Virus record (IMG/VR): IMGVR_UViG_3300006755_000004
Location: 1 to 50,989 of that record
Source of the DNA: a virus
Taxonomy: Duplodnaviria; Caudoviricetes
DNA length: 50,989 nucleotides
Strand: one strand, 5' to 3'
Notes under the pieces: generated by a model
Databases searched by the model: none
What the model saw: the letters and a program-made list of their open reading frames with translations, nothing else
What the model was told of the DNA's origin: nothing
Made by a program: the position numbers and the translations under genes
In this document: positions 3,497 to 26,517 of the stretch, piece by piece
How positions within the stretch are numbered: position 1 is the first letter of the stretch
Layout: every line of letters begins with the position of its first letter

Positions 3497-4262
3497 CCGT
3501 CTGTACTCCGTCCATGATCTTGTTGGCCTCCTCCCAGGCCTCGTGCGAGAGGACGCCCTTGGTCCACTTGCCGTACCGGCCCATCCGGTGAACGACCGGG
3601 AAGCAGCGGCAGTTGGTCTGCAACGGCTTCACGACTCGCCAGATCTGGCCGTTGTACGCCAGCGGGTACTTGTTGTGCGGCCACTCCGTGTTGGTGAAGC
3701 CCTGGATCTTCGAGGCCCTGTACCAGTCGAACCCCGGCTCTCCGTTGCACAGAACCGTGTTGTCCGACAGCGTGCACTCAAGCTCGTTCGTGGCCCACAC
3801 GAGCTCGTGTCCGAACCGGTGCCGACTGTCGTGGCAGAGCACCGTCGCCGGGATCGTCGAGATGACGACGTCCGGCCTCCAGTCCTTCATCAGCTTGGAC
3901 AGGATGGTCGGCGTGATGTCGACGTCGTGGACGTCCGAGCCGTACAGCGACCACAGGCTGTCGTACGCCTCGCGGATGTCCCAGGCGAGATGGCGACCCA
4001 CGAGCGTCTCGGGGCTGACCTCGACCTTGGCGTCCGGCCCGTACACCTTGTCTCTGTAACCGGCCACGCTGCCGCTGATCTCGTAGTTGATCAGGAACGG
4101 CTCCTTGATCGACACACCAGGAATCGGCGCGTGCAGATACTGGGCTCCGTTCATGAACGACTTGCGAGCCTTGGACACGACGATGAAGTCCGCGCCCCGG
4201 CTGTACGCCGCGTGTGCCGCGATCATCCCGGCCGGACCGCATCCCAGAATCAGGACCTTCAC
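3468..4262 (-). CDS. FAD/NAD(P)-dependent oxidoreductase
   Basis: GTG start (GTGA overlap); Rossmann motif KVLILGCGPAGMIAA; GAQYLH; C-terminal GRYGKW flavin-binding-type motif. Confidence 0.8.
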   Translation of the reverse strand: MKVLILGCGPAGMIAAHAAYSRGADFIVVSKARKSFMNGAQYLHAPIPGVSIKEPFLINYEISGSVAGYRDKVYGPDAKVEVSPETLVGRHLAWDIREAYDSLWSLYGSDVHDVDITPTILSKLMKDWRPDVVISTIPATVLCHDSRHRFGHELVWATNELECTLSDNTVLCNGEPGFDWYRASKIQGFTNTEWPHNKYPLAYNGQIWRVVKPLQTNCRCFPVVHRMGRYGKWTKGVLSHEAWEEANKIMDGVQTGVSLDTTGA

Positions 4263-4438
4263 TGAACGATCTCCACTGTCTCGATCGGCTTCTGTCCGAC
4301 CTCGTGGATACGAGACCGGATCGCTCCAGCCCTTGCGTGCGGAACGCACTGTGAGTCTATCACGTGAACTCCGCCGCACGACTGGACCTTCTCGCAGGTG
4401 CATCCCGGCTCATTCGGGAGGCAGCAGACAAGGCTCAT
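4259..4438 (-). CDS. small Cys-rich hypothetical protein
   Basis: MSLVCCLPNEPGCTCEK...; 4-bp overlaps at both ends. Confidence 0.5.
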   Translation of the reverse strand: MSLVCCLPNEPGCTCEKVQSCGGVHVIDSQCVPHARAGAIRSRIHEVGQKPIETVEIVQ

Positions 4439-5836: not shown

Positions 5837-6574
5837 TCAGCCCGCCGAGACCGCGATGCCGACCATCTGGCCGGACTTCACGAGGAAGTCGTCGCGGTCG
5901 CCCTGCTTGACGTCGACGGAGGTGTCGACGACCTTGAGCTCCCAGCCCGCTCCCTCGCCCTGGATGACGCGGCCGTCCTCACCGCGCTTGCGCCGGAGGT
6001 GCGCGACGGCGATGGTGTTCTTCGGCTTGTACAGGCTGGGCTCGATCCACGCCACGGGCGACTTGGTTCCGCCGGTGGAGTCGTACAGCGTGACCGTGAT
6101 GTTCTTGGCCCGCTTCATGTCCGAGCCCCGCTTGAACGCGGTCGCGTTGAGGACGATGTCGGTGATGCGGATCGGGATCCGCTTGAGGTCCAGCCGGAGC
6201 GTCTCGTCGTCGCCCGCACCCTCGCCGGTCTGGTTGTCACCGGTGTGCGTGGCGGAACCGGCGGCGGAGCCCTCGTTGGCGAAGGTGTCGACCTCGTCCC
6301 AGCCGAGGTACTTGACCGGCTTGGTCCCGGCGTACATCGTGCCGACACCATCCAGGTCGGACCCGACGCTGCGGTTCAGGACGCCGAGCAGGCCGCCCTT
6401 GCCGCCCGTGGACTTGTCCCAGCCCAGGCCCATCTCGATGATCTCGACGCCGTCCAGCGGGTTCCAGCCGTCCTCCGGCGTGATGGTCTGGAGCTGCGCG
6501 TAGTCGACCTCGACCACCTGGGTCGTGTAACCCTGCGGCGTCGGAGCGGCGTCCTTGCTGAAGATCCCAGCCAT
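5837..6574 (-). CDS. terD: TerD/TerZ-family stress protein
   Basis: GLGWD, SDLD and HTGDNQTGEGAGDDETLRLDL are TerD-domain signatures. Confidence 0.85.
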   Translation of the reverse strand: MAGIFSKDAAPTPQGYTTQVVEVDYAQLQTITPEDGWNPLDGVEIIEMGLGWDKSTGGKGGLLGVLNRSVGSDLDGVGTMYAGTKPVKYLGWDEVDTFANEGSAAGSATHTGDNQTGEGAGDDETLRLDLKRIPIRITDIVLNATAFKRGSDMKRAKNITVTLYDSTGGTKSPVAWIEPSLYKPKNTIAVAHLRRKRGEDGRVIQGEGAGWELKVVDTSVDVKQGDRDDFLVKSGQMVGIAVSAG

Positions 6575-6618
6575 GAGAATGCAGTCCTTACCCCGGTCCA
6601 CTCAGACCGGAATCAGTA

Positions 6619-9872: not shown

Positions 9873-10448
9873 TCAGCCGAGGTCGTCCTCGTCGAAGTCG
9901 TCCTCGACCGGCGCGGGCTTGGCCTTGGCGGCGGGGGCCGGACGGCGGCGACGGCGGGAGACCGGCTTCGCGGCGGGCTCCTCGGCCTCCTCCTCGGCCT
10001 CCTCGACGACCGGCTTGGCCTTCGCGGTGGCGGCACCCCGGCGACGGCGGCTCACGGGCTTGGCCGGGGGCTCCTCCGCCTCGTCCTCGTCGTCCTCGAC
10101 GGGCTCGGCCGCCTTCTTCGCGGCGGCCTTCTTGGCGGTGGCGGTCGCGGCCTTCTTCGCCTTGGCCTCGGCCTCCTCGCGCTTCTTGACCTCGCGGGCC
10201 TCGCGCTTCTCCTCGCGCTTGGCCTCGGCCTCCTCGGCCGCCGCGCGCTTCTCCGCCAGGACCTCCTGGTTCTCCGGCGACTTCTGGAACTCGATCCGGA
10301 GGGCGCAGGCCATCTGGACGGACTTGACGTCGACGTCCTCGTAGCCGGTCTTGTCGGCGATCCACTCGGCGAAGCGCTCGTGCAGGTCGCTGGGGTCCTT
10401 GTCGACGAGCTTCGTGAAGCGCTCGGTGTTCTCTTCGGCCTCGGCCAT
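9873..10448 (-). CDS. Lys/Ala/Glu-rich protein, paralog family member 1
   Basis: LHERFAEWIADKTG...DVKSVQMACALRIEFQKSPENQ shared with 16596-17069 and 20275-20868. Confidence 0.8.
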   Translation of the reverse strand: MAEAEENTERFTKLVDKDPSDLHERFAEWIADKTGYEDVDVKSVQMACALRIEFQKSPENQEVLAEKRAAAEEAEAKREEKREAREVKKREEAEAKAKKAATATAKKAAAKKAAEPVEDDEDEAEEPPAKPVSRRRRGAATAKAKPVVEEAEEEAEEPAAKPVSRRRRRPAPAAKAKPAPVEDDFDEDDLG

Positions 10449-10485
10449 GGTTATCTGCTCCATATCGAACGGGTGGGCACGACCA

Positions 10486-15474: not shown

Positions 15475-15539
15475 GGACTCGTCAGCACCGGTACCATACC
15501 GGCGGACCAGCAGCGCTTCCCAGCGGGCTGGTTTCGTCC
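15475..15539 (-). ncRNA. type II hammerhead ribozyme HH1
   Basis: Minus strand: GGAC-GAAA-CCAGC...GCTGG-TC^CGCCGG-TATGGTA-CCGGTG-CTGACGA-GTCC; predicted cut 15505/15504. Confidence 0.93.
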
Positions 15540-15542
15540 TGG

Positions 15543-15692
15543 CTAGAGGAAGATGGACCAGATGAGGAAGGCTCCGAAGCTGCCTCCCAGGATGAAGACC
15601 GCGAGCACGACGAACATGCAGCCGAGCGCACAGCCCTTGCCGTCCTTGTCCATGTCGTGCTTGGTCCACCAGTTCTCGATGTAGCTCGCCAT
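15543..15692 (-). CDS. small single-TM membrane protein
   Basis: MASYIENWW...GCALGCMFVVLAVFILGGSFGAFLIWSIFL; TGATG coupling. Confidence 0.6.
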   Translation of the reverse strand: MASYIENWWTKHDMDKDGKGCALGCMFVVLAVFILGGSFGAFLIWSIFL

Positions 15693-15781
15693 CAGCCCAG
15701 CGCCTCCCAGAGGGGCTTGACAGCCGGGTTGCTCACCGGCATCGCCGGAGGCTCTTCCGTGACCCACACGTCTTCGTCCAT
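15692..15781 (-). CDS. 29-aa peptide
   Basis: MDEDVWVTEEPPAMPVSNPAVKPLWEALG; GGAGG RBS immediately after HH2. Confidence 0.55.
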   Translation of the reverse strand: MDEDVWVTEEPPAMPVSNPAVKPLWEALG

Positions 15782-15797
15782 GTGCAAGATCCTCCAC

Positions 15798-15872
15798 GAT
15801 CTCGTCAGCACCCGTACCTTACGGGCGGACGCTCCGTCCACGGCTGGCAACCGCGTGCGGAGCGTTTCGATC
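15798..15872 (-). ncRNA. type II hammerhead ribozyme HH2
   Basis: GATC-GAAA-CGCTCC...GGAGCG-TC^CGCCCG-TAAGGTA-CGGGTG-CTGACGA-GATC; stem II covaries (GATC/GATC); cut 15828/15827. Confidence 0.93.
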
Positions 15873-15884
15873 TGGCTGGGAGGC

Positions 15885-15980
15885 TCAGCCCCGCTGCGAG
15901 GCGATGTACGCCACGAGCAGGGCCAAGGTTAATAACCAGAACCATCTTCCTGAGCGGTCCGGCCGCTGCCTGTGGTTCAT
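15885..15980 (-). CDS. 31-aa membrane peptide
   Basis: MNHRQRPDRSGRWFWLLTLALLVAYIASQRG. Confidence 0.45.
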   Translation of the reverse strand: MNHRQRPDRSGRWFWLLTLALLVAYIASQRG

Positions 15981-15982
15981 GG

Positions 15983-16453
15983 TCAGTCCGTGGTCTCGAC
16001 GAAGCCCGCGTCGTCCCCGAAGTCGCTGGGGGCGTTCTCGTCCGGGATGCCGAACTCGCGACGCCGGTTGACCTCGTCCGGCGAGACGAGCTTCATCTGG
16101 CGACCCCTGAAGTCGATCCCGATGTCGTGGCGTGCCTTGAGCTCGTGCACCAGCCACGCCGGGTTGATCCAGAGCGGGACGTACATGGAGCCGTTGTTCA
16201 GCAGCTCGATGTACGCGGCCTTGATCAGGTCGTCGCACCCCATCTCGCGGAGCGTCTTGGGCAGCTCCAGCATCTCGGGCGTGGGGTCGGTGTTGCAAGG
16301 CCGGAGGTTGTAGTCGACCTCGTTGTTGTCCGCGTCGCGCAGCCGGAGCCGGTTGATCGCGTCGTTGGCCTTGTCCTCGTCGGTGAACACCGCCAGGTGC
16401 TCCTCGCGGTCCTCCTCGACCAGCACCTTGTAGATGTTCCACACAACGTCCAT
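15983..16453 (-). CDS. hypothetical protein (156 aa)
   Basis: MDVVWNIYKV...; GAGGAGG RBS right after HH3. Confidence 0.75.
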   Translation of the reverse strand: MDVVWNIYKVLVEEDREEHLAVFTDEDKANDAINRLRLRDADNNEVDYNLRPCNTDPTPEMLELPKTLREMGCDDLIKAAYIELLNNGSMYVPLWINPAWLVHELKARHDIGIDFRGRQMKLVSPDEVNRRREFGIPDENAPSDFGDDAGFVETTD

Positions 16454-16466
16454 GCATCCTCCTCGG

Positions 16467-16530
16467 GGACTCCTCAGCAGCGCCATCCAGCGCCGGACCA
16501 TCGGCTCCTTGCGGAGCTTAGGTTTCGTCC
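16467..16530 (-). ncRNA. type II hammerhead ribozyme HH3
   Basis: GGAC-GAAA-CC(TAA)GCTCC-GCAA-GGAGC(CGAT)GG-TC^CGGCGC-TGGATG-GCGCTG-CTGAGGA-GTCC; cut 16496/16495. Confidence 0.9.
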
Positions 16531-16595
16531 TTGCCACCCTGGCACCCTGGCCGAGGGACTCGAAGTCTCCTCGACCAGGGGCGCTCGGTGGGGTG

Positions 16596-17069
16596 TTACT
16601 TGGTGGTGGTCCGACGCGTCCGGCGGGTGCGCGGCTTGGGCGCGTCCTCCGTGGGCTCGGCAGCAGCCTCCGTGGCCGCCTCCGCGCCGTTCTCCGTGTC
16701 GGCCTCAGCGGCGGGCTCAGCGTCGTCCTTCGGGGCCTCAGCGGGCTCCTTGGGCTTCGCCTCGTCCGTCGCGGCCTCCTCGCCCTTGAGCTTGGCGAGC
16801 TCGGCCTCCAGCTTGGCGAGCTTCCGGGCCTTGGCCTCTTCCGCCTTCTTGGCGGCCTCGGCCTTGCGCTCCTTCAGCGCCTGCTGGTTCTCGTCGGACG
16901 CCTGGAAGTCCATCCGCAGCGTCACGGCGAGCTGGACCGTCTTCAGGTCCGGGGTGAAGCCCGTCTTCTCCTCGATCCACTTGGCGAACTGCTTGTGGAG
17001 CTCGGTGGGCTCGCTGGCCGCCCGCTCGACGAAGGTCTTCTTGGTCTCGGCGGTGGTGTTCTCGGCCAT
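16596..17069 (-). CDS. Lys/Ala/Glu-rich protein, paralog family member 2
   Basis: LHKQFAKWIEEKTG...DLKTVQLAVTLRMDFQASDENQ; AAGGAGG RBS after HH4. Confidence 0.8.
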   Translation of the reverse strand: MAENTTAETKKTFVERAASEPTELHKQFAKWIEEKTGFTPDLKTVQLAVTLRMDFQASDENQQALKERKAEAAKKAEEAKARKLAKLEAELAKLKGEEAATDEAKPKEPAEAPKDDAEPAAEADTENGAEAATEAAAEPTEDAPKPRTRRTRRTTTK

Positions 17070-17085
17070 GGTGTTTCCTCCTTGG

Positions 17086-17149
17086 GGACTCCTCAGCACC
17101 GGCTCTTACCGGCGTACGGCCAGCGCCTCCCGGCGGGACCGTTTCGTCC
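17086..17149 (-). ncRNA. type II hammerhead ribozyme HH4
   Basis: GGAC-GAAA-CGGTC...GGCCG-TA^CGCCGG-TAAGAG-CCGGTG-CTGAGGA-GTCC; GUA site, cut 17115/17114. Confidence 0.92.
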
Positions 17150-17570
17150 TGTGTATTGCATGCCGGCATCTCATCCGCTTGTGGATGGTTGCGGTTGCCG
17201 GCAGACCGTCCACCTTTCGACTTCCTGGCCAGAGGTGCCCCGAGCGGGGTGTCTCACTTGACCCAGGCTTGAAGAGGTGGAGTCCGTCGCTCGCTAGCAG
17301 CTTTCAGTACCAACCGGATGTGTGCGCTTCCGGCCTCCGCAGTGGAGGTCGGCTGCCCGTCCTCGGCCAGTCCAGTCGCTTCGCTCGCAACTACCGGTTT
17401 TGGGGAGTCCGGTTCCTGTCTAGAGTCAGCGGCCAGGACCGGGGTCCTGTGCGCGATCTCAGCCGTCTCTCTTGGCTGTCCTGCTCGGGTTCGCGGTCTT
17501 CGGGCGGAACCTCGACCCTCGGCCAGACCGGCCATCCGGGGAGTTCGTTCCTTGCCCTCGTCGCTTCCTG
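17150..17570 (-). ncRNA. candidate large structured ncRNA A (paralog of 21279-21597)
   Basis: About 420 nt between a promoter and HH4 with no convincing CDS; 5' ~90 nt and 3' end homologous to copy B. Confidence 0.6.
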
Positions 17571-17576
17571 AGTAGA

Positions 17577-17605
17577 ACTATGCGCCATATCTGGGTCCGA
17601 GGCAA
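17577..17605 (-). promoter_or_regulatory. sigma70-type promoter driving ncRNA A (TTGCCT-17-CATAGT)
   Basis: Exact 17-nt spacing; same -35 as the promoter at 21604-21632; upstream CCTACCTG/CAGGTAGG inverted repeat and A-tract. Confidence 0.7.
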
Positions 17606-17773
17606 CAACGCCCCTACCTGGTCAAACGCCGTGTTTGCGCAGGTAGGGGCATGTGCGAACTTCCTCGAAGTTTTTTTGACTTTCTTCGTTTCCGCAGGCC
17701 GGCATGAGTGCGACGCGTCATGGGGCGAATCGGGCGAACCCTATCGTCAACGGCGATTCACCCGGCCTCCGGC

Positions 17774-18175
17774 CTACCAGCAGCCGCCGTGGATTGGCGT
17801 GAACTTCATCGCGTCGCCTTCGGCGAGGAGCGCGGCCTTGTGGTACGTCGCCCAGCTGGTGGTGTACCAGACGTCGTCGTCCTTGGACGAGCCGTTGACG
17901 TTGTCCAGCTCCACACAGTACAGCGCAGGCTTGGCATGCTGGTCGATGACCTTCTTCCAGGCCACGACCGTGCGGTACGACTTGCACTTGCCGTTAACCT
18001 TGCGCGTGCACTCCTTGCTGGTGGTCTTGACCTTGTGGCTGCGCTCGGCCACGGCCTTGGTGGACTTGATGTCGTCGCGCAGGCCGTGCACGCTTGTGAT
18101 GGCCGGTGCCTTGGCGCTGCACGCGCTGATGCCGGCAATCGCGACGAAGATGACGGGCGCGGTCCTGATCCGCAT
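17774..18175 (-). CDS. putative lipoprotein
   Basis: Signal peptide with lipobox-like GISAC; AAGGA RBS. Confidence 0.7.
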   Translation of the reverse strand: MRIRTAPVIFVAIAGISACSAKAPAITSVHGLRDDIKSTKAVAERSHKVKTTSKECTRKVNGKCKSYRTVVAWKKVIDQHAKPALYCVELDNVNGSSKDDDVWYTTSWATYHKAALLAEGDAMKFTPIHGGCW

Positions 18176-18205
18176 GGGGTTCCTTCGCTCGTGTAAGGGG
18201 ATGGA

Positions 18206-18240
18206 GCGCCCCGGTCGGGCCGGTTGCCTGACCGGGGCTC
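18206..18240 (-). terminator. hairpin, probable terminator
   Basis: GCCCCGGTCGGGC...GCCTGACCGGGGC inverted repeat. Confidence 0.55.
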
Positions 18241-18270
18241 GTTCGCTCGTTACGTGGCCGCGTAGGGCGG

Positions 18271-18615
18271 CTAGAGGGGCACGAGGTCGTACAGCTTCCC
18301 GTCCGAGTCGCGCACGACGCGGGTGCCGTCCTCCTTCTCGCCCACCAGCTCGAAGTGCAGGTCCTTGCCGGCATCCGGGTTGGCTCGCTGCGGGAAGCCG
18401 GAGTTGTCGAGCGACTCCAGACGCCAGCTGTTGCCGGCAGACAGCACGGTGATGTTCATGCCGCCGTCCGTCATCAGGAAGCGCACGGCGTTGCGGACCG
18501 AGGACTCCTGGGCTCCCTTGGGCAGCCGGTTCATGATGTCCTGGAGCGTGACGACCTTGCCCACGTTGTTGGACAGAACCTCGACGACGGTCGGACGGGT
18601 CTGGATGCGAGTCAT
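18271..18615 (-). CDS. winged-helix-like DNA-binding protein
   Basis: VVEVLSNNVGKVVTLQDIMNRLP...SVRNAVRFL...WRL pattern; AAGGAGG RBS. Confidence 0.6.
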   Translation of the reverse strand: MTRIQTRPTVVEVLSNNVGKVVTLQDIMNRLPKGAQESSVRNAVRFLMTDGGMNITVLSAGNSWRLESLDNSGFPQRANPDAGKDLHFELVGEKEDGTRVVRDSDGKLYDLVPL

Positions 18616-18635
18616 TGTGCAGTCCTCCTTGGGGA

Positions 18636-19049
18636 CTAGTTGTTGCTGTCGTTGCGCTGTGCCGGGACGGTGCCCTCGGCGTCCTTGGCCTGGTACATGC
18701 GGGCCGGTCCGAACTCGACCTTGCCCTCGTGCTCCAGGACGCGCCACACGGCCGCGCGCTCCATCTCGTTGAGCCTGCCGCCCTTGGCGATCTCGAACTG
18801 GTGCTCGGCCATGGCGAACAGGAACAGCGCGCGGAGCTGCATCAGCGAGCTGTAGGCCAGGCCCTGGCGGACGTGCGGGCGGGTCTGCTCGCGCTTCTGC
18901 TTGGATCCGAGCCGGTACATCGCCAGCTGGTACTCGGTGGCGAACTGCAGGTGCTCCTCGAACGTGTTCGGGTCGAGCGGCATGCCCGTTGCCTCGGCCA
19001 CGGTCTCGGCGTCGAACGCCACCTGGATCCTGTGCTTGCGGTCGTACAT
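18636..19049 (-). CDS. hypothetical protein (137 aa)
   Basis: MYDRKHRIQ...; AAGGAGG RBS after HH5. Confidence 0.75.
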   Translation of the reverse strand: MYDRKHRIQVAFDAETVAEATGMPLDPNTFEEHLQFATEYQLAMYRLGSKQKREQTRPHVRQGLAYSSLMQLRALFLFAMAEHQFEIAKGGRLNEMERAAVWRVLEHEGKVEFGPARMYQAKDAEGTVPAQRNDSNN

Positions 19050-19064
19050 GTTGGTCCTCCTTCG

Positions 19065-19117
19065 GGACTCTTCAGGAGTGCCGTCCAGCACCCGACCTCC
19101 TTTCGGAGGTTTCGTCC
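19065..19117 (-). ncRNA. type II hammerhead ribozyme HH5 (minimal)
   Basis: GGAC-GAAA-CCTCC-GAAA-GGAGG-TC^GGGTGC-TGGACG-GCACTC-CTGAAGA-GTCC; cut 19094/19093. Confidence 0.95.
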
Positions 19118-19121
19118 TTGG

Positions 19122-19310
19122 TCACATGTCGTTGAGAACCTGCCGGATGCAGTCCTCGCTCATGAAGGGGTAGTCGCGGCGGATGAGCTCCGCGATCTGA
19201 GCCTTCTGGTTCAGCGACGGCGACGCCGCCTGGAGGGGCGCAGCGCTGCGATCAGCTCGCCCAGGAAGTCGGCGAGCAAGTCGATGAAGAACATCGCGCA
19301 CCTGCCTCAC
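19122..19310 (-). CDS. hypothetical protein; frame ambiguous (an overlapping 27-aa ORF MFFIDLL...RRRRRR is also possible)
   Basis: GTGA coupling to the upstream ORF; the alternative ATG has an RBS-like sequence. Confidence 0.35.
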   Translation of the reverse strand: MRQVRDVLHRLARRLPGRADRSAAPLQAASPSLNQKAQIAELIRRDYPFMSEDCIRQVLNDM

Positions 19311-19465
19311 TGTCCAGCCGGAGGACCGAACAGGTCCTGCGCGTCGGCGTCCGGCGGCTGCACCTGCTCCGTGGGCGTGTGGCCTCGCGTCTCCGCCTGG
19401 ATGACCGGGTCAGCCTCCGGAGGGGCGGCGGGCTCGTGGCCGTTGTGCGGGGTGGGGACGCTCAC
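19307..19465 (-). CDS. Pro-rich hypothetical peptide
   Basis: GTG start overlapping the upstream stop; AAGGAG RBS. Confidence 0.5.
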   Translation of the reverse strand: MSVPTPHNGHEPAAPPEADPVIQAETRGHTPTEQVQPPDADAQDLFGPPAGQ

Positions 19466-19686
19466 TTGCTGATCTCCTTCTTGGTCACCGGGATGAGGAG
19501 CCCATGCTCGCTCATCGACACCATCTTGCAGAATCCGACGAGCTCCCGCACGATGCGGGGCGGGGCGCTGTGGATGACGACATAGTCCTTGTTGACCACC
19601 CCGTCGAAGATCGCGAACGTCGACATCTTGATGAGGCCGTCGGCGTTCATGATGTAGTCGTACACGGCCTTGCGGTCGTTGTCCAT
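19462..19686 (-). CDS. hypothetical protein (74 aa)
   Basis: AAGGAGG RBS. Confidence 0.7.
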   Translation of the reverse strand: MDNDRKAVYDYIMNADGLIKMSTFAIFDGVVNKDYVVIHSAPPRIVRELVGFCKMVSMSEHGLLIPVTKKEISK

Positions 19687-19704
19687 CTCGTCCTCCTTGG
19701 GGAC

Positions 19705-19863
19705 TTAGGCCAGCTCCATGCCGGCATCGTATCCGCACTGGGCATGGGCCCACACGGTCTGTGCATTCTCGCGATCGATGAACAGCCCCATCTCGTTGTC
19801 CGCGTCCTCGTCGCAGAGCTGGCAGCTGTCATCGTCCATGAGCTCGCGCTCGTCCTCGTCCAT
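19705..19863 (-). CDS. small acidic Cys/His protein
   Basis: MDEDERELMDDDSCQLC...HAQC; TGATG coupling. Confidence 0.55.
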   Translation of the reverse strand: MDEDERELMDDDSCQLCDEDADNEMGLFIDRENAQTVWAHAQCGYDAGMELA

Positions 19864-20177
19864 CAGATCGCGTCCACCTTGTCGAGGTAACGCCGGAGCG
19901 CGGCGCGCACCGACTGCGGCTTGACGCCGTAGCGGCGTGCTAGGCGGCCTACCGAGTGGCAGTCGCCGCCTTCCTTCAGGAACGCTCCGTAGAGCTGTGC
20001 ACCGCCCAGCGGGAGCCTCTTGTAGGGCCGAGGCTTGCGGCCGGTTGCCCGCACGATGACCTTGCGGATCGTGCTCTCGTTGACGCCCAACGCACGGGCG
20101 GTCGCCGAGTTGTTCTGGTCGTGCCTACGCCACGTCTTAACGACCTCGTCGTCGCTCGGCAGCGGGATCAGACCCAT
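19863..20177 (-). CDS. HTH DNA-binding protein (two HTH-like units)
   Basis: NNSATARALGVNESTIRK and VGRLARRYGVKPQSVRAAL; AGGAGG RBS after HH6. Confidence 0.7.
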   Translation of the reverse strand: MGLIPLPSDDEVVKTWRRHDQNNSATARALGVNESTIRKVIVRATGRKPRPYKRLPLGGAQLYGAFLKEGGDCHSVGRLARRYGVKPQSVRAALRRYLDKVDAI

Positions 20178-20192
20178 GACCATCCTCCTGGG

Positions 20193-20263
20193 GGACTCGT
20201 CAGTACGGCCACTCAGCCGCAGACCGCCCCGGTCCTGTGGTAGCGACCGGGGCGGTTTCGTCC
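20193..20263 (-). ncRNA. type II hammerhead ribozyme HH6
   Basis: GGAC-GAAA-CCGCCCCGGTC-(10)-GACCGGGGCGG-TC^TGCGGC-TGAGTG-GCCGTA-CTGACGA-GTCC; cut 20222/20221. Confidence 0.94.
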
Positions 20264-20274
20264 TGGGGTGTTGC

Positions 20275-20868
20275 TCAGTTGTCCAGCGCGCCGCAGCAGG
20301 GCTTGGCGTCGTAGGCCATGTAGTTGTCCTCCAGGCTGGACTCGCCGGAGTCGATCATGTCCGAGTAGATCAGGTGGGTCAGCTCGGTGTGGCTGCTGAC
20401 CAGCGCGGTCTCCTTGGAGAAGCCCTGCTTCGCGGTCTTCTTCTTGGCGTCGGCGCACCCGAACTTGTGGACCTCGGGCTCGTTGCCGCCGTAGATCACC
20501 GTCAGCTTGACCGGCTCGCTGGGCTCCTCGGCCTTGACCTCGACCGGAGCCTCCTCGGCCTTCGGCTCCTCGGCCTTGACCTCGCCCTTGATCTCGGCCA
20601 GCATCTTCTCCAGCTTGGCCTTCTTGCGCTCGGCCGACGCCTTCTTCAGCTCGGCCGCCTTGGCCTTGCGCTCGGCCAGGCTCTTCTGGTTCTCCGGGCT
20701 GGCCTGGAAGTCCATCCGGAAGGAGACCGCGAGCTGGACCGTCTTGACGTCGACCTTGACCCCGGTCTGGATGTACAGCCAGTGTGCGAAGTCCTCGTGC
20801 AGCTGGGTGGGAGCCTTCTTGGCGAGCTCTTCGAAGTTCTTCGGGGTCTTGGGGGAGTTGGCAGCCAT
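20275..20868 (-). CDS. Lys/Ala/Glu-rich protein, paralog family member 3, with extra C-terminal domain
   Basis: LHEDFAHWLYIQTG...DVKTVQLAVSFRMDFQASPENQ. Confidence 0.8.
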   Translation of the reverse strand: MAANSPKTPKNFEELAKKAPTQLHEDFAHWLYIQTGVKVDVKTVQLAVSFRMDFQASPENQKSLAERKAKAAELKKASAERKKAKLEKMLAEIKGEVKAEEPKAEEAPVEVKAEEPSEPVKLTVIYGGNEPEVHKFGCADAKKKTAKQGFSKETALVSSHTELTHLIYSDMIDSGESSLEDNYMAYDAKPCCGALDN

Positions 20869-20911
20869 GGTGTCCTCCTTGGGGACTCGTTCGGTTGGCC
20901 TTACAGTAAGA

Positions 20912-20940
20912 ACTATACTCCATATGGAGCCAGTTGGCTA
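20912..20940 (-). promoter_or_regulatory. repeated early promoter (TAGCCA-17-TATAGT)
   Basis: Consensus ...ATGGAG-TATAGT with 17-nt spacer. Confidence 0.7.
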
Positions 20941-20961
20941 CTCTGGAGTGCAACTTGTTTG

Positions 20962-20999
20962 CCGGCAAGCCGGGGAGCTGGTGGGCTCCCCGGCTGCCA
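20962..20999 (-). terminator. hairpin, probable terminator
   Basis: AGCCGGGGAGC...GCTCCCCGGCT inverted repeat. Confidence 0.55.
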
Positions 21000-21011
21000 G
21001 TCGCGCTAGTT

Positions 21012-21197
21012 TCAGCGCTGGATCTCGTCGGGACCGGGCGTCCCGAGCGGGTTGTCGACCTGGATCAGGTCCCGGCCGTCCGAGTCGGTCGGCAGGGGCC
21101 GGTTGGTGATCTGGTCGCCGCTCTTGACCTCGGCCTTGGGGCCGGGGCTGCCGGGCGGGTTGCTCGCCTGCGGGACGCGCTTGGGCAGGATGCCCAT
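21012..21197 (-). CDS. Pro-rich hypothetical protein (61 aa)
   Basis: MGILPKRVPQ...; AAGGAG RBS after HH7. Confidence 0.65.
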   Translation of the reverse strand: MGILPKRVPQASNPPGSPGPKAEVKSGDQITNRPLPTDSDGRDLIQVDNPLGTPGPDEIQR

Positions 21198-21213
21198 GGT
21201 GTTCTCCTTCGTG

Positions 21214-21278
21214 AGACTCCTCAGGACCGCCATCCAGCGGCCGACCCTCGGGGCGTTGCCGCCCGTCGGGTTTCGTCT
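21214..21278 (-). ncRNA. type II hammerhead ribozyme HH7
   Basis: AGAC-GAAA-CCC..GGGCG-GCAA-CGCCC..GGG-TC^GGCCGC-TGGATG-GCGGTC-CTGAGGA-GTCT; compensatory A-U pair in stem II; cut 21243/21242. Confidence 0.92.
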
Positions 21279-21597
21279 TTGGTATTCGCATGCCGGCATC
21301 TCCGGCACTGCGTTCGCTCCGCCCTCGCGCCTTGCCAACCTCTCGGATGTTCTCTCGTGGGGTGGCTGGTTCCGTGTCTCCCTAGCCAGTCCCGCGTCCG
21401 TCCCCGAGGAGTTGCGCGCTACTACCTTCGCTGCCGTTTTCTTGTGGAGGGTCGGTGCCCTGTCTCCGACGCTGCATTTGCTGCTACCGACCTGTCGCCT
21501 GGCCGCCTTGCTCGGTGTTCGCGTTCTTCGGGTGGAGCCTCGACCGTCGGCTGGAGTCGCCGTCCCGGGAGCTTCGCTCGCCGCCCTCTCGCTTACA
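21279..21597 (-). ncRNA. candidate large structured ncRNA B (paralog of 17150-17570)
   Basis: About 320 nt between a promoter and HH7; homologous blocks shared with copy A. Confidence 0.6.
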
Positions 21598-21603
21598 GGA
21601 CTA

Positions 21604-21632
21604 ATCATGCTCCAGATCCACGAGAAAGGCAA
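21604..21632 (-). promoter_or_regulatory. sigma70-type promoter driving ncRNA B (TTGCCT-17-CATGAT)
   Basis: Duplicate of the 17577-17605 architecture. Confidence 0.7.
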
Positions 21633-21892
21633 CAACCCGTCTACCTGGTCAAACATGATGAATGCCCTGGTAGGAGGCTTGCCGGCATTCTGAAAGTTTT
21701 TTGAAGAACTTTCGTTTGACCAGGCCGGCATGAGTGCGTGGAACGAATCGGGTCGAATCGGGCTCAGCCCCGGTGCGCGGTCCTACGTGGCCCGTAGGCG
21801 GCTCCGCGCGGGCTCGCCGGGGCAACGGGGCTCCCGCGCGCTGCGCGCTCGCGTACGGGGCGCGTAGGGGTGCGCACGGCCCCACAACGCGA

Positions 21893-21943: not shown

Positions 21944-22309
21944 TCAGTCGCGGTCGGCGCAGCGGTTGAGCTCGCGGAGCGCCTTCTGCATCGCCTTGCG
22001 CTCGTAGGCCTCACGAGCATTCTGGATGCCGGAGGTCGAGCCGCCGACGTTGCCCTCGATGAGCTGCTCGGTGGCGTCCACCATCCAGTCCTCGATGCCT
22101 CGCTTGCCGGCACGGTTCCAGCGGGTCTGCAGCTTGGCGGTCAGGTCGGCGTTGGCCTGCGCCTCCAGCAGGTTCTCCATCGTGCCCGGCAGGACCATCT
22201 CGCCAGCGGCGAACGCGTCGGTGAAGCGGGCCTGGACGGTCAGCAGCTGCTTCGCGGCGGAGAGGGCCAGGAGCTCGACGGTCTTCGCGGTCTTCTCGGA
22301 GTTCAGCAT
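21944..22309 (-). CDS. hypothetical protein, cassette gene
   Basis: Own promoter, GAAGCCCCAAGGAGG RBS and terminator. Confidence 0.75.
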   Translation of the reverse strand: MLNSEKTAKTVELLALSAAKQLLTVQARFTDAFAAGEMVLPGTMENLLEAQANADLTAKLQTRWNRAGKRGIEDWMVDATEQLIEGNVGGSTSGIQNAREAYERKAMQKALRELNRCADRD

Positions 22310-22354
22310 TGGGTGCCTCCTTGGGGCTTCGTTCCGGTTGGCCTTACGAGAACT

Positions 22355-22383
22355 ACTATACTCCAGTCTGGAGGTTCGCGCTA
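22355..22383 (-). promoter_or_regulatory. repeated early promoter (TAGCGC-17-TATAGT)
   Basis: Consensus match. Confidence 0.7.
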
Positions 22384-22414
22384 CTCCAGATCGAAGATTC
22401 TTTCTACTGCCTCA

Positions 22415-22443
22415 GGCCCGCACCCCGGTGTGGGATGCGGGCC
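22415..22443 (-). terminator. hairpin terminator
   Basis: GGCCCGCA...TGCGGGCC. Confidence 0.55.
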
Positions 22444-22461
22444 GGTTGCCGGCAGTTGCGC

Positions 22462-22821
22462 TCAGCCCTCCAGCGCGGGGCTCGGGGGCGTGTAGCCCGT
22501 CCGCTCGATCGCCACGATCAGCATCGCCCGCAGCGCGGGGACGTCGGGCGAGTCCGAGTTGACCACGTCGTCGTACAGCTCACGCGCGGTCGCCTCCAGG
22601 TCGGTCACCAGCTCCATGCACTCCGGGACCATCGAGTCGTACAACGCGCAGCTGCAGTAGCTGTTCGAGCCGCACCCGCAGCCCGTCGCCTTGAGCGAGA
22701 ACAGCTCGCCCGTCTCGTCCTTGATCACCAGCATCGCGACGCCCGCAAGGTCGTACCGCTCCTGCGTGATGTCCACGTCGCCGAGGACCGTGTAACCGGG
22801 GATCGTGTAGTCGCTGCTCAT
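22462..22821 (-). CDS. hypothetical Cys-cluster protein, cassette gene
   Basis: MSSDYTIPG...ATGCGCGSNSYCSC; GAAGCCCCAAGGAGG RBS. Confidence 0.7.
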   Translation of the reverse strand: MSSDYTIPGYTVLGDVDITQERYDLAGVAMLVIKDETGELFSLKATGCGCGSNSYCSCALYDSMVPECMELVTDLEATARELYDDVVNSDSPDVPALRAMLIVAIERTGYTPPSPALEG

Positions 22822-22859
22822 GGCCGCCTCCTTGGGGCTTCGTTCGGGATGTTGATAGA

Positions 22860-22888
22860 ACCTTACTCCATCTGCACAACGGGCGCTA
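22860..22888 (-). promoter_or_regulatory. repeated early promoter (TAGCGC-17-TAAGGT)
   Basis: Spacer contains the conserved TGTGCAGATGGAG. Confidence 0.65.
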
Positions 22889-22917
22889 CCCCTTTGTGCA
22901 GATTTCTTGCCGGCAAG

Positions 22918-22954
22918 GGCGGAGCCCCGGCTCCCTGGGGAACCGGGGCTCGCC
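22918..22954 (-). terminator. hairpin terminator
   Basis: GAGCCCCGG...CCGGGGCTC. Confidence 0.6.
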
Positions 22955-22964
22955 TTCGGGTTGG

Positions 22965-23288
22965 TCAGACGGTGCCCGGCTCGACCGGGATGATCGCCTT
23001 GGTCCCTCGGAACTCGCCAGCGTCGACGTACGCGCCGAGCTCCGTCTGCATGAGCGTTGCCAGCCACGTGGCGTCCATGTGGTCGGGAACCTCCCAGAAC
23101 CCGTCCAGTGCGACCTGCTCGTCGATCGCGTTCAGCAGCTCGTCGCGCTTGGCGACCAGCATGTCGAGCGTGTTCTCCTTGAGCAGGGTCGGCACGACCG
23201 GGTTGAGCCGGTTGAGGTCGTACGACAGCACAGACACCTGGATGGCGACCTGGTGCTTCTCGTGCTCGATGGAGTGGATCTCGCTCAT
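22965..23288 (-). CDS. hypothetical protein, cassette gene
   Basis: CCCCCAGGAGG RBS; own promoter and terminator. Confidence 0.72.
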   Translation of the reverse strand: MSEIHSIEHEKHQVAIQVSVLSYDLNRLNPVVPTLLKENTLDMLVAKRDELLNAIDEQVALDGFWEVPDHMDATWLATLMQTELGAYVDAGEFRGTKAIIPVEPGTV

Positions 23289-23342
23289 CGGGGCCTCCTG
23301 GGGGCCTCGGGGCCGACCCTCGCGGTCGGCCTTACACTAAGA

Positions 23343-23371
23343 ACTATACCCCATCTGCACATGCGTGGAAA
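23343..23371 (-). promoter_or_regulatory. repeated early promoter (TTTCCA-17-TATAGT)
   Basis: Spacer ATGTGCAGATGGGG. Confidence 0.7.
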
Positions 23372-23449
23372 CCCCTCGGGGCAACTTTGTGCAGAATCAG
23401 TAGGTGGCCGTTTGCCGGCATGCCGGCACGAGGCCGGACGCGGGTAGCC

Positions 23450-23483
23450 GAGAGGCCCTCTTCGGCTGTGGAGAGGGCCTCTC
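23450..23483 (-). terminator. hairpin terminator
   Basis: GAGAGGCCCTCT...AGAGGGCCTCTC. Confidence 0.65.
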
Positions 23484-23498
23484 TGGGCTCGGGCGGGG

Positions 23499-24209
23499 TC
23501 AGCAGGAGACGCAGACCCGGAACTCCTTCCGCGTGCACTGGCCGTAGTAGGTCGGGCCGGTCCGCTCGATCGGCTCGGTGCGGATCTTGGTGTTGGCGTA
23601 GGTGACCGGCTGCCGGCAGTCGGCGCAGATGGTCTTGGTGTAGGTCCACTCGAAGCGGTAGTCCTCCGGGACCGAGCCCGGCTTGTGCAGCTCGGTGGCG
23701 TCCGTGCCCTGTCGGGTCGCGTCGATGCCGGGGACCTGGACGACGTAGGTGAAGCGCTCGGTGCCGAACCTACGGTGCTCGCCGTGGTCGACGACCCGGA
23801 CGACCTCGACCTCTCCGGCGGGGCAGCGGTAGCCGTGGGGGCGCTCGCCCGGCAGGAAGAACAGCTTGTCGCCGACCTGGTGCTCGGCACCCTCGACGAT
23901 CTCCGGCTTGGACTCCTCGACCGGCGCGGTGGCGGCGGCCTCGGCCTCCAGGGCGGCCAGCGCGGCCTTCTCGCAGGTCTTGCAGACCTTGCGGCCACCG
24001 GTGATGCGGGCGGCGTCCAGCGCGTCCTGGATGCGCTCGTAGCTGGCTCCCTGGGCCAGACGGCCACGGGTCAGGACGCCACAGGCGTTCTCGGCGTAGT
24101 AGGCGACGACCCCGGTCTCGTTGATGTTCGCGTCGCTCTGGTTGCTCGTGGTCTTGCAGGCGATTCCGGCGATGTGGTTGGTGGCTCGGTTGTAGCGGAT
24201 GCTGAACAT
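23499..24209 (-). CDS. hypothetical multi-domain Zn-binding protein, cassette gene
   Basis: MFSIRYNRATNHI...CKTCEK...CADC...CVSC; GAGGAGG RBS. Confidence 0.72.
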   Translation of the reverse strand: MFSIRYNRATNHIAGIACKTTSNQSDANINETGVVAYYAENACGVLTRGRLAQGASYERIQDALDAARITGGRKVCKTCEKAALAALEAEAAATAPVEESKPEIVEGAEHQVGDKLFFLPGERPHGYRCPAGEVEVVRVVDHGEHRRFGTERFTYVVQVPGIDATRQGTDATELHKPGSVPEDYRFEWTYTKTICADCRQPVTYANTKIRTEPIERTGPTYYGQCTRKEFRVCVSC

Positions 24210-24251
24210 TGGGTGCCTCCTCGGGGCTCCGTTCCCTGCCTTACGAGAGTA

Positions 24252-24280
24252 ACTATACTCCATCTGCACATGCCGCGCTA
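24252..24280 (-). promoter_or_regulatory. repeated early promoter (TAGCGC-17-TATAGT)
   Basis: Spacer GGCATGTGCAGATGGAG. Confidence 0.72.
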
Positions 24281-24399
24281 CCCGTTTCCACAGAATTGTT
24301 GAAACGGATTTGCCGGCCTCCTGCAGGCTCCAGAGGGGCGTGTGGGCTTTAACCTACAGGCCGCATCTCCACAAGCCGGCAGACAGCCGCCTACACATG

Positions 24400-24440
24400 C
24401 AGGAGCCCCGCCTCCTCCGGTTGGAGGGGCGGGGCTCCTG
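24400..24440 (-). terminator. hairpin terminator
   Basis: CAGGAGCCCCGCC...GGCGGGGCTCCTG. Confidence 0.65.
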
Positions 24441-24446
24441 GCCCTG

Positions 24447-24719
24447 TCAGACCTCGCCGTCGAACTCGACCAGGTGCGCGTAGTCCAGGTCCATCTGGTC
24501 GGGGTCCTGGCTCTCGACCTCGATCATCCGGTAGCCGACCGGGTTGACGTCGTCCATCGCGGCCCAGTAGGCGTAGGCGACCGGGTCGCCCTCCAGCACC
24601 TCGACGACCTCGTGCCACGGGCCACGGATCCGGCCGGTCGCCTCGACCGTGCCGTGGACCTCCATCGTCGCGCGGATCCGGTTGAGCAGGTCCTCGTTGG
24701 TGTTCTCGGCGTCGAACAT
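24447..24719 (-). CDS. hypothetical protein, cassette gene
   Basis: MFDAENTNEDLL...; CCCCAAGGAGG RBS. Confidence 0.72.
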   Translation of the reverse strand: MFDAENTNEDLLNRIRATMEVHGTVEATGRIRGPWHEVVEVLEGDPVAYAYWAAMDDVNPVGYRMIEVESQDPDQMDLDYAHLVEFDGEV

Positions 24720-24755
24720 CTCGGCCTCCTTGGGGCTCTCTTGCTTACGAGAGTA

Positions 24756-24784
24756 ACTATACTCCATTCGGGGTGGAGGCGCTA
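24756..24784 (-). promoter_or_regulatory. repeated early promoter (TAGCGC-17-TATAGT) embedded in a long inverted repeat
   Basis: TTCGGGGTGGAGG-cgctac-CCTCCACCCCGAA; the hairpin could also terminate the upstream gene. Confidence 0.7.
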
Positions 24785-24808
24785 CCCTCCACCCCGAACT
24801 AGTTGCTG

Positions 24809-25057
24809 CTACTTGGAGTCGGGCTGGAAGGTCTCGCCGACCCAGTAGCCGGTGCCCACCGCGCCCCAGCTGACCGACTGGTAGCCCTCGGCCTTCATCT
24901 TGTCGGAGAGCTTGACCAGAGCGTCCTGGCCGTTGCGGACCTTGAAGGACTCCAGGGTCTTGCGGTCCTCGCCGTAGCCGGTCTTGATCAGGACCTGCGC
25001 CCAGCCGTTGCCCAGGCTGCGGAACTCGATGCGCTTCTGGATCAGGGTCTCGGCCAT
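24809..25057 (-). CDS. hypothetical protein, cassette gene
   Basis: GAAGCCCCAAGGAGG RBS. Confidence 0.72.
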   Translation of the reverse strand: MAETLIQKRIEFRSLGNGWAQVLIKTGYGEDRKTLESFKVRNGQDALVKLSDKMKAEGYQSVSWGAVGTGYWVGETFQPDSK

Positions 25058-25105
25058 GGTTGCCTCCTTGGGGCTTCGGGCGGCTCGTCCGCCCTCATGA
25101 GTAGA

Positions 25106-25134
25106 ACTTTACTCCATCTGCACATGGCTGGCTA
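25106..25134 (-). promoter_or_regulatory. repeated early promoter (TAGCCA-17-TAAAGT)
   Basis: Spacer GCCATGTGCAGATGGAG. Confidence 0.68.
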
Positions 25135-25202
25135 CTCGTTTGTGCACTTTTCTTGAAGATTCTTTTGGAGATCTGCCGGCTTGGATTTTGGGCATCAAAC
25201 CA

Positions 25203-25231
25203 AGTCTACTCCATCTCCACACGAATGGAAA
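25203..25231 (-). promoter_or_regulatory. repeated early promoter (TTTCCA-17-TAGACT), tandem upstream copy
   Basis: Spacer ends GTGGAGATGGAG. Confidence 0.62.
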
Positions 25232-25263
25232 CCCCCTTGGCACATCTCTTTGAAATGCCGGCA

Positions 25264-25288
25264 CGCCCCGGTCGCGAGGACCGGGGCG
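25264..25288 (-). terminator. hairpin terminator
   Basis: CGCCCCGGTC...GACCGGGGCG. Confidence 0.55.
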
Positions 25289-25301
25289 CACGGGGCGGCG
25301 A

Positions 25302-25520
25302 CTAGCAGCCGGGGCAGCCGGGGTGGGTGAAGCAGGCGGTCCGGCGGCAGGGCATCGAGTGCGGGTGCGCCATCTCGCCGCAGTCGATGCAGACGTGGGA
25401 CAGGCAGAACTTGCCGGCAGGCAGCAGGACGCAGTCGGCGCAGCCGTAGGTAGCGAGCGCCGTAGCGGCCAGCAGGCGGACATAGAGGGCGGAGAGCGGG
25501 ACGAGGACGGGAGCGGACAC
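25302..25520 (-). CDS. small Cys/His-rich protein, cassette gene
   Basis: GTG start after CCCCAAGGAGG; CADC, CIDC, CPGC. Confidence 0.6.
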   Translation of the reverse strand: MSAPVLVPLSALYVRLLAATALATYGCADCVLLPAGKFCLSHVCIDCGEMAHPHSMPCRRTACFTHPGCPGC

Positions 25521-25551
25521 TTGGACCTCCTTGGGGTCGTTGACTAAGAGA

Positions 25552-25580
25552 ACTCTACTCCAGATGCCGGCAGAAAGCAA
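25552..25580 (-). promoter_or_regulatory. repeated early promoter (TTGCTT-17-TAGAGT)
   Basis: Spacer ends ATCTGGAG and contains TGCCGGCA. Confidence 0.68.
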
Positions 25581-25594
25581 GTCTGGATATGGGG

Positions 25595-25623
25595 TTGCTT
25601 TCCATGTGCACATGGGGTATAGT
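25595..25623 (+). promoter_or_regulatory. repeated early promoter, rightward (TTGCTT-17-TATAGT)
   Basis: Back-to-back with 25552-25580; ATG begins 7 nt after the -10 box. Confidence 0.7.
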
Positions 25624-25923: not shown

Positions 25924-26517
25924 CTACTCAGCAATGTGCACATCCTCTTCCGTCACGTGGCCGTCCGTGATGCTGAACGAGCGCACGCTGTCGTCGAGCG
26001 TGGACACGATCACATGGTGCACACCCAGGGGCGTCGCATAGGCCGTGTCCACTCCGCTGGGGTACGCCTCGGTTGCCGTATGTGAGTGCCACACCGCCAC
26101 GACCTCCTCGCCACGCACGTCCAGCCCCTTGTGCAGTCTGATCAGCTCCTCGGGGTCGAACTCGAAGAACCGGTCGGACTGCGCCGCGTTGATCATCGCG
26201 ATGATGCGCGTCGGCCTGTTGGCTCCGACCGGGGCCGTCAGGACGCCGCACGCTTCCAGCGGTGCCTCTCCTTGTGCGAAGGCGACCATGTCGTCTCGCA
26301 CCTTCTGTGGCAGGACCAGGGTCACTGCGTCTCCTCTGTAGTCGGACAAGTCGCGGAGGACGTCCATCGTCCCGCGCTTCCGCTTCACCTCCCGCTCGGG
26401 TATCCGCCATGCGGGCTCGCAAACCCCAGCCAGTACGACGGGCGCGGCCGGTTGCCGGCAAGCCGCTGCCTCAGGGCTCGGGCAGTCCCATGGGCACCAT
26501 GCACACTGCGCGGTCAC
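25924..26517 (-). CDS. JAB/MPN (Mov34) metallopeptidase, Mec+/CysO-cysteine peptidase-like; alternative start GTG 26325
   Basis: EACGVL...WHSHTATEAYPSGVD JAMM motif (E-HxH-S-D); similar from memory to actinobacterial Mec+. Confidence 0.85.
   Translation of the reverse strand: MTAQCAWCPWDCPSPEAAACRQPAAPVVLAGVCEPAWRIPEREVKRKRGTMDVLRDLSDYRGDAVTLVLPQKVRDDMVAFAQGEAPLEACGVLTAPVGANRPTRIIAMINAAQSDRFFEFDPEELIRLHKGLDVRGEEVVAVWHSHTATEAYPSGVDTAYATPLGVHHVIVSTLDDSVRSFSITDGHVTEEDVHIAE

Follow-up and report, generated by a model that had tools for sequence, protein, structure and literature searches.

The window analyzed here, a 50,989-nucleotide (nt) stretch of DNA (positions 1 to 50,989 of the virus record IMGVR_UViG_3300006755_000004), carries on its minus strand an array of seven type II hammerhead ribozymes (15475 to 21278) and two predicted long non-coding leader RNAs (up to position 21597), each leader ending in one of the ribozymes. 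The record, of a Streptomyces phage, is 74% complete and contains terminase, portal, tail, primase, helicase and exonuclease genes. Judged by sequence, the seven elements are very likely to be real, probably active ribozymes, and we consider it fairly likely that they process the transcripts of this region into uniform mRNAs and release the two leaders as structured RNAs.

A descriptor scan of the whole window (core CUGANGA, GAAA and UH, three paired stems, open stem II) returned seven type II hammerheads, every one on the minus strand; of 200 dinucleotide shuffles of the window, 199 gave no match and one gave a single match. A looser first pattern had matched only one of the seven, stem III exceeding its length limit. 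The junction core of the class (CUGANGA/GAAA/UH) was present in all seven, and loops cap stems I and III while stem II is open, matching the definition of type II in the available part of Perreault et al. 2011 (PMC3088659). The cleavage triplet is GUC in six copies and GUA in one, core position 7 is G, C or A, and stem II reads GGAC/GUCC in five copies, GAUC/GAUC in one and AGAC/GUCU in one. Fold prediction gave the hammerhead as the minimum-energy structure in 7/7 when the RNA stops at stem II; the base of stem III comprises just 3–4 pairs in the copies at 16530 and 21278, with an internal loop beyond it. An initial annotation of the window had listed seven minus-strand elements with positions and cut sites, described them as hammerheads with an open stem II, and reported triplet counts, position 7 variants and compensatory changes in stem II; the scan reproduced every position and cut site exactly, core, loops and stem topology were found in 7/7, and the variants were all as described. 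The search with Rfam models that it had proposed gave a mixed outcome, as RF02276 (Hammerhead_II) detected two of the seven copies (33.2 and 29.8 bits), both under the gathering score of 37, and had no match to the other five. By score and by pseudoknot, the window copies fall outside the RF02276 family.

In the direction of transcription, the array begins with hammerhead 7 (21214–21278, GUC, predicted cut 21243/21242), which ends leader A and lies ahead of a gene for 61 amino acids (aa; 21197–21012). It is followed by hammerhead 6 (20193–20263, GUC, cut 20222/20221) ahead of a helix-turn-helix gene (20177–19863), hammerhead 5 (19065–19117, GUC, cut 19094/19093) ahead of a 137-aa gene (19049–18636), and hammerhead 4 (17086–17149, GUA, cut 17115/17114), which ends leader B and precedes a 157-aa gene (17069–16596). 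Hammerhead 3 (16467–16530, GUC, cut 16496/16495) stands ahead of a 156-aa gene (16453–15983), hammerhead 2 (15798–15872, GUC, cut 15828/15827) ahead of two very small genes starting at 15781, and hammerhead 1 (15475–15539, GUC, cut 15505/15504) ahead of a DUF2786 gene (15459–14488). Five of the hammerheads start 3–65 nt past a stop codon and two follow a long leader; the distance from predicted cut to ATG is 42–46 nt in 7/7.

The region was matched in nine cultured Streptomyces phages, Wentworth, PHTowN, Lizz, ShakeNBake, phiRKBJ001, Gibson, Rooney, Dryad and Yara, which we take to be cluster BN. The initial annotation had suggested surveying copy number in related phages, and 6–8 hammerheads were found in each of the nine (stretches fetched), every copy having an A before stem II and a Shine-Dalgarno (SD) 4-mer within 13 nt. 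The feature tables of these phages annotate no hammerhead, Rfam at its cut-off reported none in the Wentworth and Yara stretches, and the remaining 39.5 kb of Wentworth, a phage annotated with neither an integrase nor an RNA ligase, held none by our search. Location of related copies by core sequence alone gave 92 parses; five were dropped because the SD region had been misread as core, leaving 87 distinct copies (counts over relatives are non-independent rows). Stem I pairs at 6/6 positions in 87/87 copies, each position showing several types of pair, and this retention of pairing despite changing sequence supports the earlier proposal of selection for an active fold. The standard core was found in 81/87 copies, and C stands in place of U4 in the other six. 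The U4-to-C core occurs at the leader-B-ending copy in 8/9 cultured relatives (8/14 alignment rows), the position at which the window has GUA. Both the U4-to-C core and the GUA triplet are probably slower-cleaving variants.

Loop I starts with U in 87/87 related copies and has a pyrimidine as its second-last base in 75/87, and an A stands directly before stem II in 87/87. The same A was found in 120/125 copies from unrelated phages, located with a pattern that did not require it; the subtype is therefore widespread and not peculiar to the window phage. In the available part of Perreault et al. 2011 (PMC3088659), a pseudoknot linking loop I to the 3′ tail is the type II consensus. Such a pseudoknot of at least 4 pairs is possible in just 1/87 related copies, and the mean longest helix between loop I and 3′ tail was 2.37, against 2.27 ± 0.04 for permuted tails (87 copies). 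Loop I forming a pseudoknot with the 5′ flank instead was likewise rejected (2.37 against 2.37 permuted). The loop-I U and the pre-stem-II A are compatible with the contacts joining the ends of stems I and II, reverse Hoogsteen and U:A:U, that the accessible text of PMC6155905 describes for types I and III. Since these copies lie below Rfam's cut-off, the pseudoknot-free subtype is undercounted. Stem III of several copies (e.g. 16497–16522) has recurrent internal loops in which GA steps oppose each other, as well as recurrent GCCA-containing loops, and stem III hairpins are swapped between junctions among different phages.

The ribozymes are fused to the ribosome-binding site of the gene that follows, a feature that the initial annotation had overlooked together with both non-coding leaders. 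An SD 4-mer lies at most 5 nt from stem II in 86/87 related copies, compared with 19/125 copies from other phages, whose hosts may use different SD motifs. Upstream of the array lie consecutive one-gene units, all with their own predicted promoter and terminator-like hairpin, and the ribosome-binding sites of these promoter-driven genes follow a common motif, N-CC-CCAAGGA-GG-N′. In 52/55 distinct ribozyme-free starts, N and N′ form a Watson-Crick pair (shuffled mean 22.7, maximum 35 in 5000; orthologs counted, hence rows not independent), with G:C in 30, U:A in 17, C:G in 3 and A:U in 2, and the motif is therefore a small SD hairpin. In 22/22 ribozyme-linked starts of that form, N (here U) and the two Cs lie within stem II, and stem II and the SD hairpin are mutually exclusive. 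In the window, 10 ribozyme-free starts have the hairpin. Within the array, ribozyme-free SD hairpins occur on the minus strand at 20872–20940, together with an internal predicted promoter (20940–20912) ahead of the 197-aa gene 20868–20275, at 18621–18637 (motif analysis and folding), and at about 19704–19690 (motif analysis). At seven promoter-driven genes of the phage, the distance from the −10 box to ATG is 36–54 nt; one further promoter row was discarded for an incorrect start coordinate. At 22300–25600 (minus strand), each single-gene unit has a GGAG-TANAGT promoter motif, a short SD-hairpin leader and, past the stop codon, a strong GC hairpin.

Leaders A and B are paralogs, each located behind a predicted promoter of the form TTGCCT-N17-CATRRT, so that several hundred non-coding bases sit directly behind a predicted early promoter. 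Predicted promoter A (21604–21632, TTGCCT, 17 nt, CATGAT; motif scan) has an equal layout upstream of 10 aligned leaders, and leader A extends for about 355 nt from the predicted start to the hammerhead 7 cut (21243–21597, minus strand). Predicted promoter B (17577–17605, TTGCCT, 17 nt, CATAGT; motif scan) precedes leader B, which was delimited by alignment, is about 455 nt long and has hammerhead 4 at its end (17115–17569, minus strand). Rfam gave no match to leader A alone at E ≤ 10 and just one chance-level microRNA match (E 7.1) to leader B alone. Reading frames beginning within the leaders are unannotated in 9/9 cultured relatives and broken by indels in the alignment. In Wentworth, Gibson and Dryad, leader A is 96–98% identical and leader B 88–90%, while the genes compared there, helicase and exonuclease included, are 67–91% identical; the leaders are more conserved than most neighboring genes. 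Across 8/9 cultured relatives, leader B is 88–95% identical over 95–97% of its length.

Evidence for structure comes from covariation. A hairpin with a conserved 11-nt loop (21364–21387 in leader A) changes on both sides at 5/7 pairs in 10 distinct sequences, a covariation score reached by 0/500 shuffles. An H-type pseudoknot core was found in leader A (21431–21464, AGGG/CCCU and CCG/CGG) and in leader B (17391–17420, ACCGG/CCGGU, with a first stem of 2–3 pairs only), and across 22 sequences both partners change in 2/6 of the pairs counted. PHTowN, which the pattern had missed, provided an independent check, as both pseudoknot stems are compensated there (UGGG/CCCA and ACCA/UGGU). In the 5′ domain of the leaders, 98.6% of cells are paired. 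The leaders are structured RNAs absent from Rfam. Directly upstream of both leader −35 boxes lies an inverted repeat on CTACCWG (17606–17655 and 21634–21680), which is conserved in relatives and is possibly an operator. A palindrome, TGCCGGCA, was seen at 31 sites in the window, counted with no chance control, many of them intergenic and one near each leader's 3′ end. Three encoded proteins (20275–20868, 16596–17069 and 9873–10463; phrog_20596/34140) are paralogs, one of which is located behind leader B in every relative examined.

The pseudoknot layout was also sought outside this group. A weak match of the core model (E 0.29) prompted blastn toward the right ends of Arquatrovirinae, and this second independent check showed the layout in the non-coding right-end DNA of VieEnRose, Daudau, Alvy and Janus, with UCGGA/UCCGA, CUCGGAA/UUCCGAG, GUGC/GCAC and GUGCG/CGCAC as second stems in that set; in the right ends of Pablito and Haizum it was not clear. 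The core was accepted in 15/20 viral-contig matches and 26/73 metagenome or genome matches, and the remaining 5/20 and 47/73 were dropped as chance, the upstream motif or context being missing. Five distant virus records contain it, one copy in each. Of 16 distant core loci, five carry a hammerhead directly after the leader, three a tRNA-like arm recognized by eye, and the rest neither; ARAGORN called no tRNA in 17 sources, and the tRNA-like elements were rejected as such. In Streptomyces sp. NPDC101227, a tRNA-like element comes after the core, and excisionase- and tyrosine-integrase-like frames (by eye) lie downstream of both; the genome has no terminase of the single family searched. Searched with the core model, neither 65 loci on unrelated contigs with hammerheads, nor the remainder of Wentworth, nor the covered parts of Hiyaa and KimJongPhill yielded a convincing copy; of the pattern scans for the Arquatrovirinae form of the core, one returned no match and others five chance matches within coding DNA. 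As part of the joint reading set out below, and as tentative as that reading, the core may be common to a second Streptomyces phage group, to uncultured actinophage-like contigs and to an integrative element.

The explanation we favor is that each hammerhead cuts itself while the transcripts of the minus strand, predicted to be early from their position and promoter motifs, are being made. The fold would form and cut in the short interval after stem II has been transcribed, and a contact between the first U of loop I and the A before stem II may substitute for the usual pseudoknot. Cutting by a hammerhead leaves a 5′-OH on the downstream piece and a 2′,3′-cyclic phosphate on the upstream piece. 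Every downstream gene block would thereby begin with a uniform leader of 42–46 nt, its mRNA opening on the stem I hairpin; the strand of stem II, once free, would refold into the SD hairpin, and the upstream piece would terminate in the stem III hairpin; both types of end would hinder exonucleases. Cut during transcription, the product would mimic the leader of a promoter-driven gene. Hammerheads 7 and 4 would in addition release leaders A and B as discrete folded RNAs. The likeliest role of these, which we propose tentatively, is as stable, separately acting RNAs; a function as cis-acting antiterminator appears doubtful, and one as mere nuclease shield slightly more so. A wider, joint reading, possible and held with low confidence, is that two of the hammerheads mature a new family of 250–470 nt pseudoknot RNAs acting on the host or its polymerase, as the toxic, essential Pleft RNA of mycobacteriophages (discussed below) appears to do, and that the other five turn a single long transcript into mRNAs in which the SD hairpin can form only once the ribozyme fold has gone.

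Several observations weigh against this explanation. When the SD region was included in the folding, a rival fold was better by 0.3–5.2 kcal/mol in 7/7 copies (nearest-neighbor model), and in a wider context of 180 nt the pairing probability of stem II was near zero and that of two stem I helices low; the fold models omit core and tertiary contacts. A slow or partial cut is possible on these models, and the probably slower U4-to-C core at the leader-B-ending copy in 8/9 cultured relatives points the same way. Folding of the whole leaders was no better than that of shuffles (63/100 and 58/100 shuffles equally good), the 5′ domain has one pair only that changes on both sides, and only the five of 16 distant core loci mentioned above have a hammerhead directly after the leader. 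A promoter and a terminator-like hairpin are also present in two of the stretches from one cut to the next, and therefore not every cut would split genes of one transcript. Cleavage, transcription and RNA ends are for all copies predictions from sequence. Comparison with 16 RNA runs gave a best share of window words of 0.13 in any run; four of the runs yielded assembled contigs of relatives, up to 87 kb, which points to DNA in the libraries. The contigs had no pile-up of ends, and two short ones covered the leaders, but contigs likewise covered genes.

The sharing of bases between the stem II strand and the SD hairpin in 22/22 starts of that form, and the small difference between the two folds (just 0.3–5.2 kcal/mol), would also be expected if translational control were the main job, the uncut ribozyme withholding the stem II strand from the SD hairpin and cutting or misfolding flipping the state. 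We regard this as unlikely, as the SD hairpin occurs at the 10 ribozyme-free window starts and so is compatible with translation, and as predicted SD accessibility is little altered by the cut (0.12–0.99 before, 0.32–1.00 after). Variants that look slower (U4C core, GUA triplet) cluster at both sites where a leader ends, a pattern that suggests tuned rates and could fit a timer in which cutting destabilizes or uncouples downstream mRNAs and damps accessory-gene expression. A 5′-OH combined with a terminal hairpin is said to resist entry of RNase E and RNase J, however, and the leader length is in line with that of promoter-made mRNAs, which leaves the timer with a low probability. Inactive relics, or motifs that fold without cutting, would be in keeping with the predicted rival folds; this is very improbable given that core, stems and tertiary-contact bases are intact in 7/7 copies and that the standard core is retained in 81/87 related ones.

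The repeats could instead serve mainly as DNA recombination joints for small gene cassettes, with cleavage secondary, for which the PeSL cassettes of T4-type phages are reportedly a precedent. Stem I moves with the downstream gene and stem III is exchanged between junctions, different genes stand behind an identical 3′ half in different phages, and two RNA-run contigs fuse hammerhead to hammerhead, which repeats alone could explain. Recombination needs identity, yet the copies diverge while pairing and catalytic core are kept in 87/87, and we consider this explanation distinctly improbable. Ligation of the fragments between cuts into circular RNAs would yield circles of 323–1979 nt, and 5′-OH and cyclic-phosphate ends are reportedly the substrate of RtcB-type ligases. 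No RtcB was found in the window, the record being 74% complete, nor is a ligase among Wentworth's annotated genes, while a host ligase is possible; Perreault et al. (PMC3088659), in the part available, sought circles and found none. The formation of circles is accordingly, like that of relics, given very little weight, and co-transcriptional cutting with release of the leaders stays the preferred explanation.

Clusters of hammerheads have precedents. The accessible text of Perreault et al. 2011 (PMC3088659) describes prophage clusters that flank single genes or short blocks, proposes processing into gene-length mRNAs, and reports cleavage for three clusters in vitro and for one in E. coli. The window array resembles those clusters, as far as that text goes, in having several close hammerheads of type II topology that flank genes on the same strand; it differs in that no integrase is annotated in a complete relative, in its 6–8 copies without the pseudoknot, in the fixed fusion to the SD hairpin, and in the two copies that end long non-coding RNAs. 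A term search of the accessible part of the Perreault supplement returned no Streptomyces entry, and the published alignments may still list such copies. VieEnRose and Haizum (Arquatrovirinae, Streptomyces phages) contain 8 and 7 type II hammerheads according to Rfam, and 11 and 8 by pattern; these arrays, of the pseudoknot type, lie unannotated in the right arms. They have the same catalytic core, open stem II and position between small genes as the window array, whereas their copies have a stem II of 2–3 pairs, a longer stem I and tails fitting the RF02276 consensus, compared to 4-pair stem II, 6-pair stem I and scores below the cut-off in the window. Three unrelated viral contigs carry 7–8 type II hammerheads within 6.5 kb. 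Given the prophage clusters and the VieEnRose and Haizum arrays, the window array is therefore a known arrangement. Of the novelty claimed in the initial annotation, which knew of no such array in an actinophage, the broader part is not supported in view of these precedents (PMC3088659, as available), and the narrow statement about actinophages may hold. Our literature search, outside of which most subscription literature lay, found no paper on hammerheads or on the leader in Streptomyces phages or actinophages. Most of the interest lies in the uncatalogued leader RNA and in the bases shared by stem II and the SD hairpin.

For the leaders, the closest parallel is a non-coding RNA of about 500 nt behind Pleft of the cluster A mycobacteriophages L5, D29 and StarStuff (Dedrick et al. 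2017, PMC5712189), which, according to the available part of that paper, exceeds all other transcripts in abundance, is toxic to the host and cannot be deleted in full; bioRxiv 10.1101/2025.11.21.689395 and PMC10986025, to judge from the parts available, also treat this RNA. Both kinds of RNA come immediately after an actinophage promoter that is early or, in the window, predicted to be so, and both precede small genes. The 3′ end of the Pleft RNA is ascribed to termination in the same available text, whereas the window has two paralogs and their 3′ ends are here ascribed to a ribozyme. A core model of 52 positions gave no match to the right end of D29 (best E 0.21, scattered). The likeness is an analogy of layout, and homology is unsupported. 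By eye, a non-coding stretch in the D29 right end (3930–4270 of the fetched stretch, minus strand) ends in a tRNA-like T-arm before gene 89, and it has a short GGUGAGGC motif in common with the VieEnRose non-coding region.

Two further systems invite comparison. RiboJ-type insulators consist of a hammerhead and a hairpin ahead of the ribosome-binding site and provide a defined 5′ end; they are engineered, single and promoter-proximal, while the window hammerheads are natural, repeated and intergenic. The put antiterminator RNAs of HK022 are reportedly two related structured RNAs of about 70 nt behind two early promoters, which suppress termination in cis through RNA polymerase while tethered to the transcript. 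The leaders, likewise two behind promoters, are 5–6 times longer and would be cut off. Most examples of self-cleaving ribozymes from bacteria and phages sit in prophages or uncultured contigs, and the array described here is found in nine cultured phages able to grow on Streptomyces laboratory strains, in which predictable cut sites allow a direct test with single-base core mutants. The role of prokaryotic hammerheads is described as an open question in the available part of PMC6155905. The leaders add a covarying structured RNA in cultured phages that is placed like an abundant and partly essential mycobacteriophage RNA.

Three genes elsewhere on the minus strand of the window may be mentioned. 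The product of 2843–3496 matches a PHROG polynucleotide kinase (E 4.7e-22), has no Pfam or PDB match, and is annotated as a phosphatase in relatives; speculatively, it could repair cyclic-phosphate ends. The other two encode a prokaryotic JAB-domain protein (25924–26301) and a TerD-domain protein (5837–6601).

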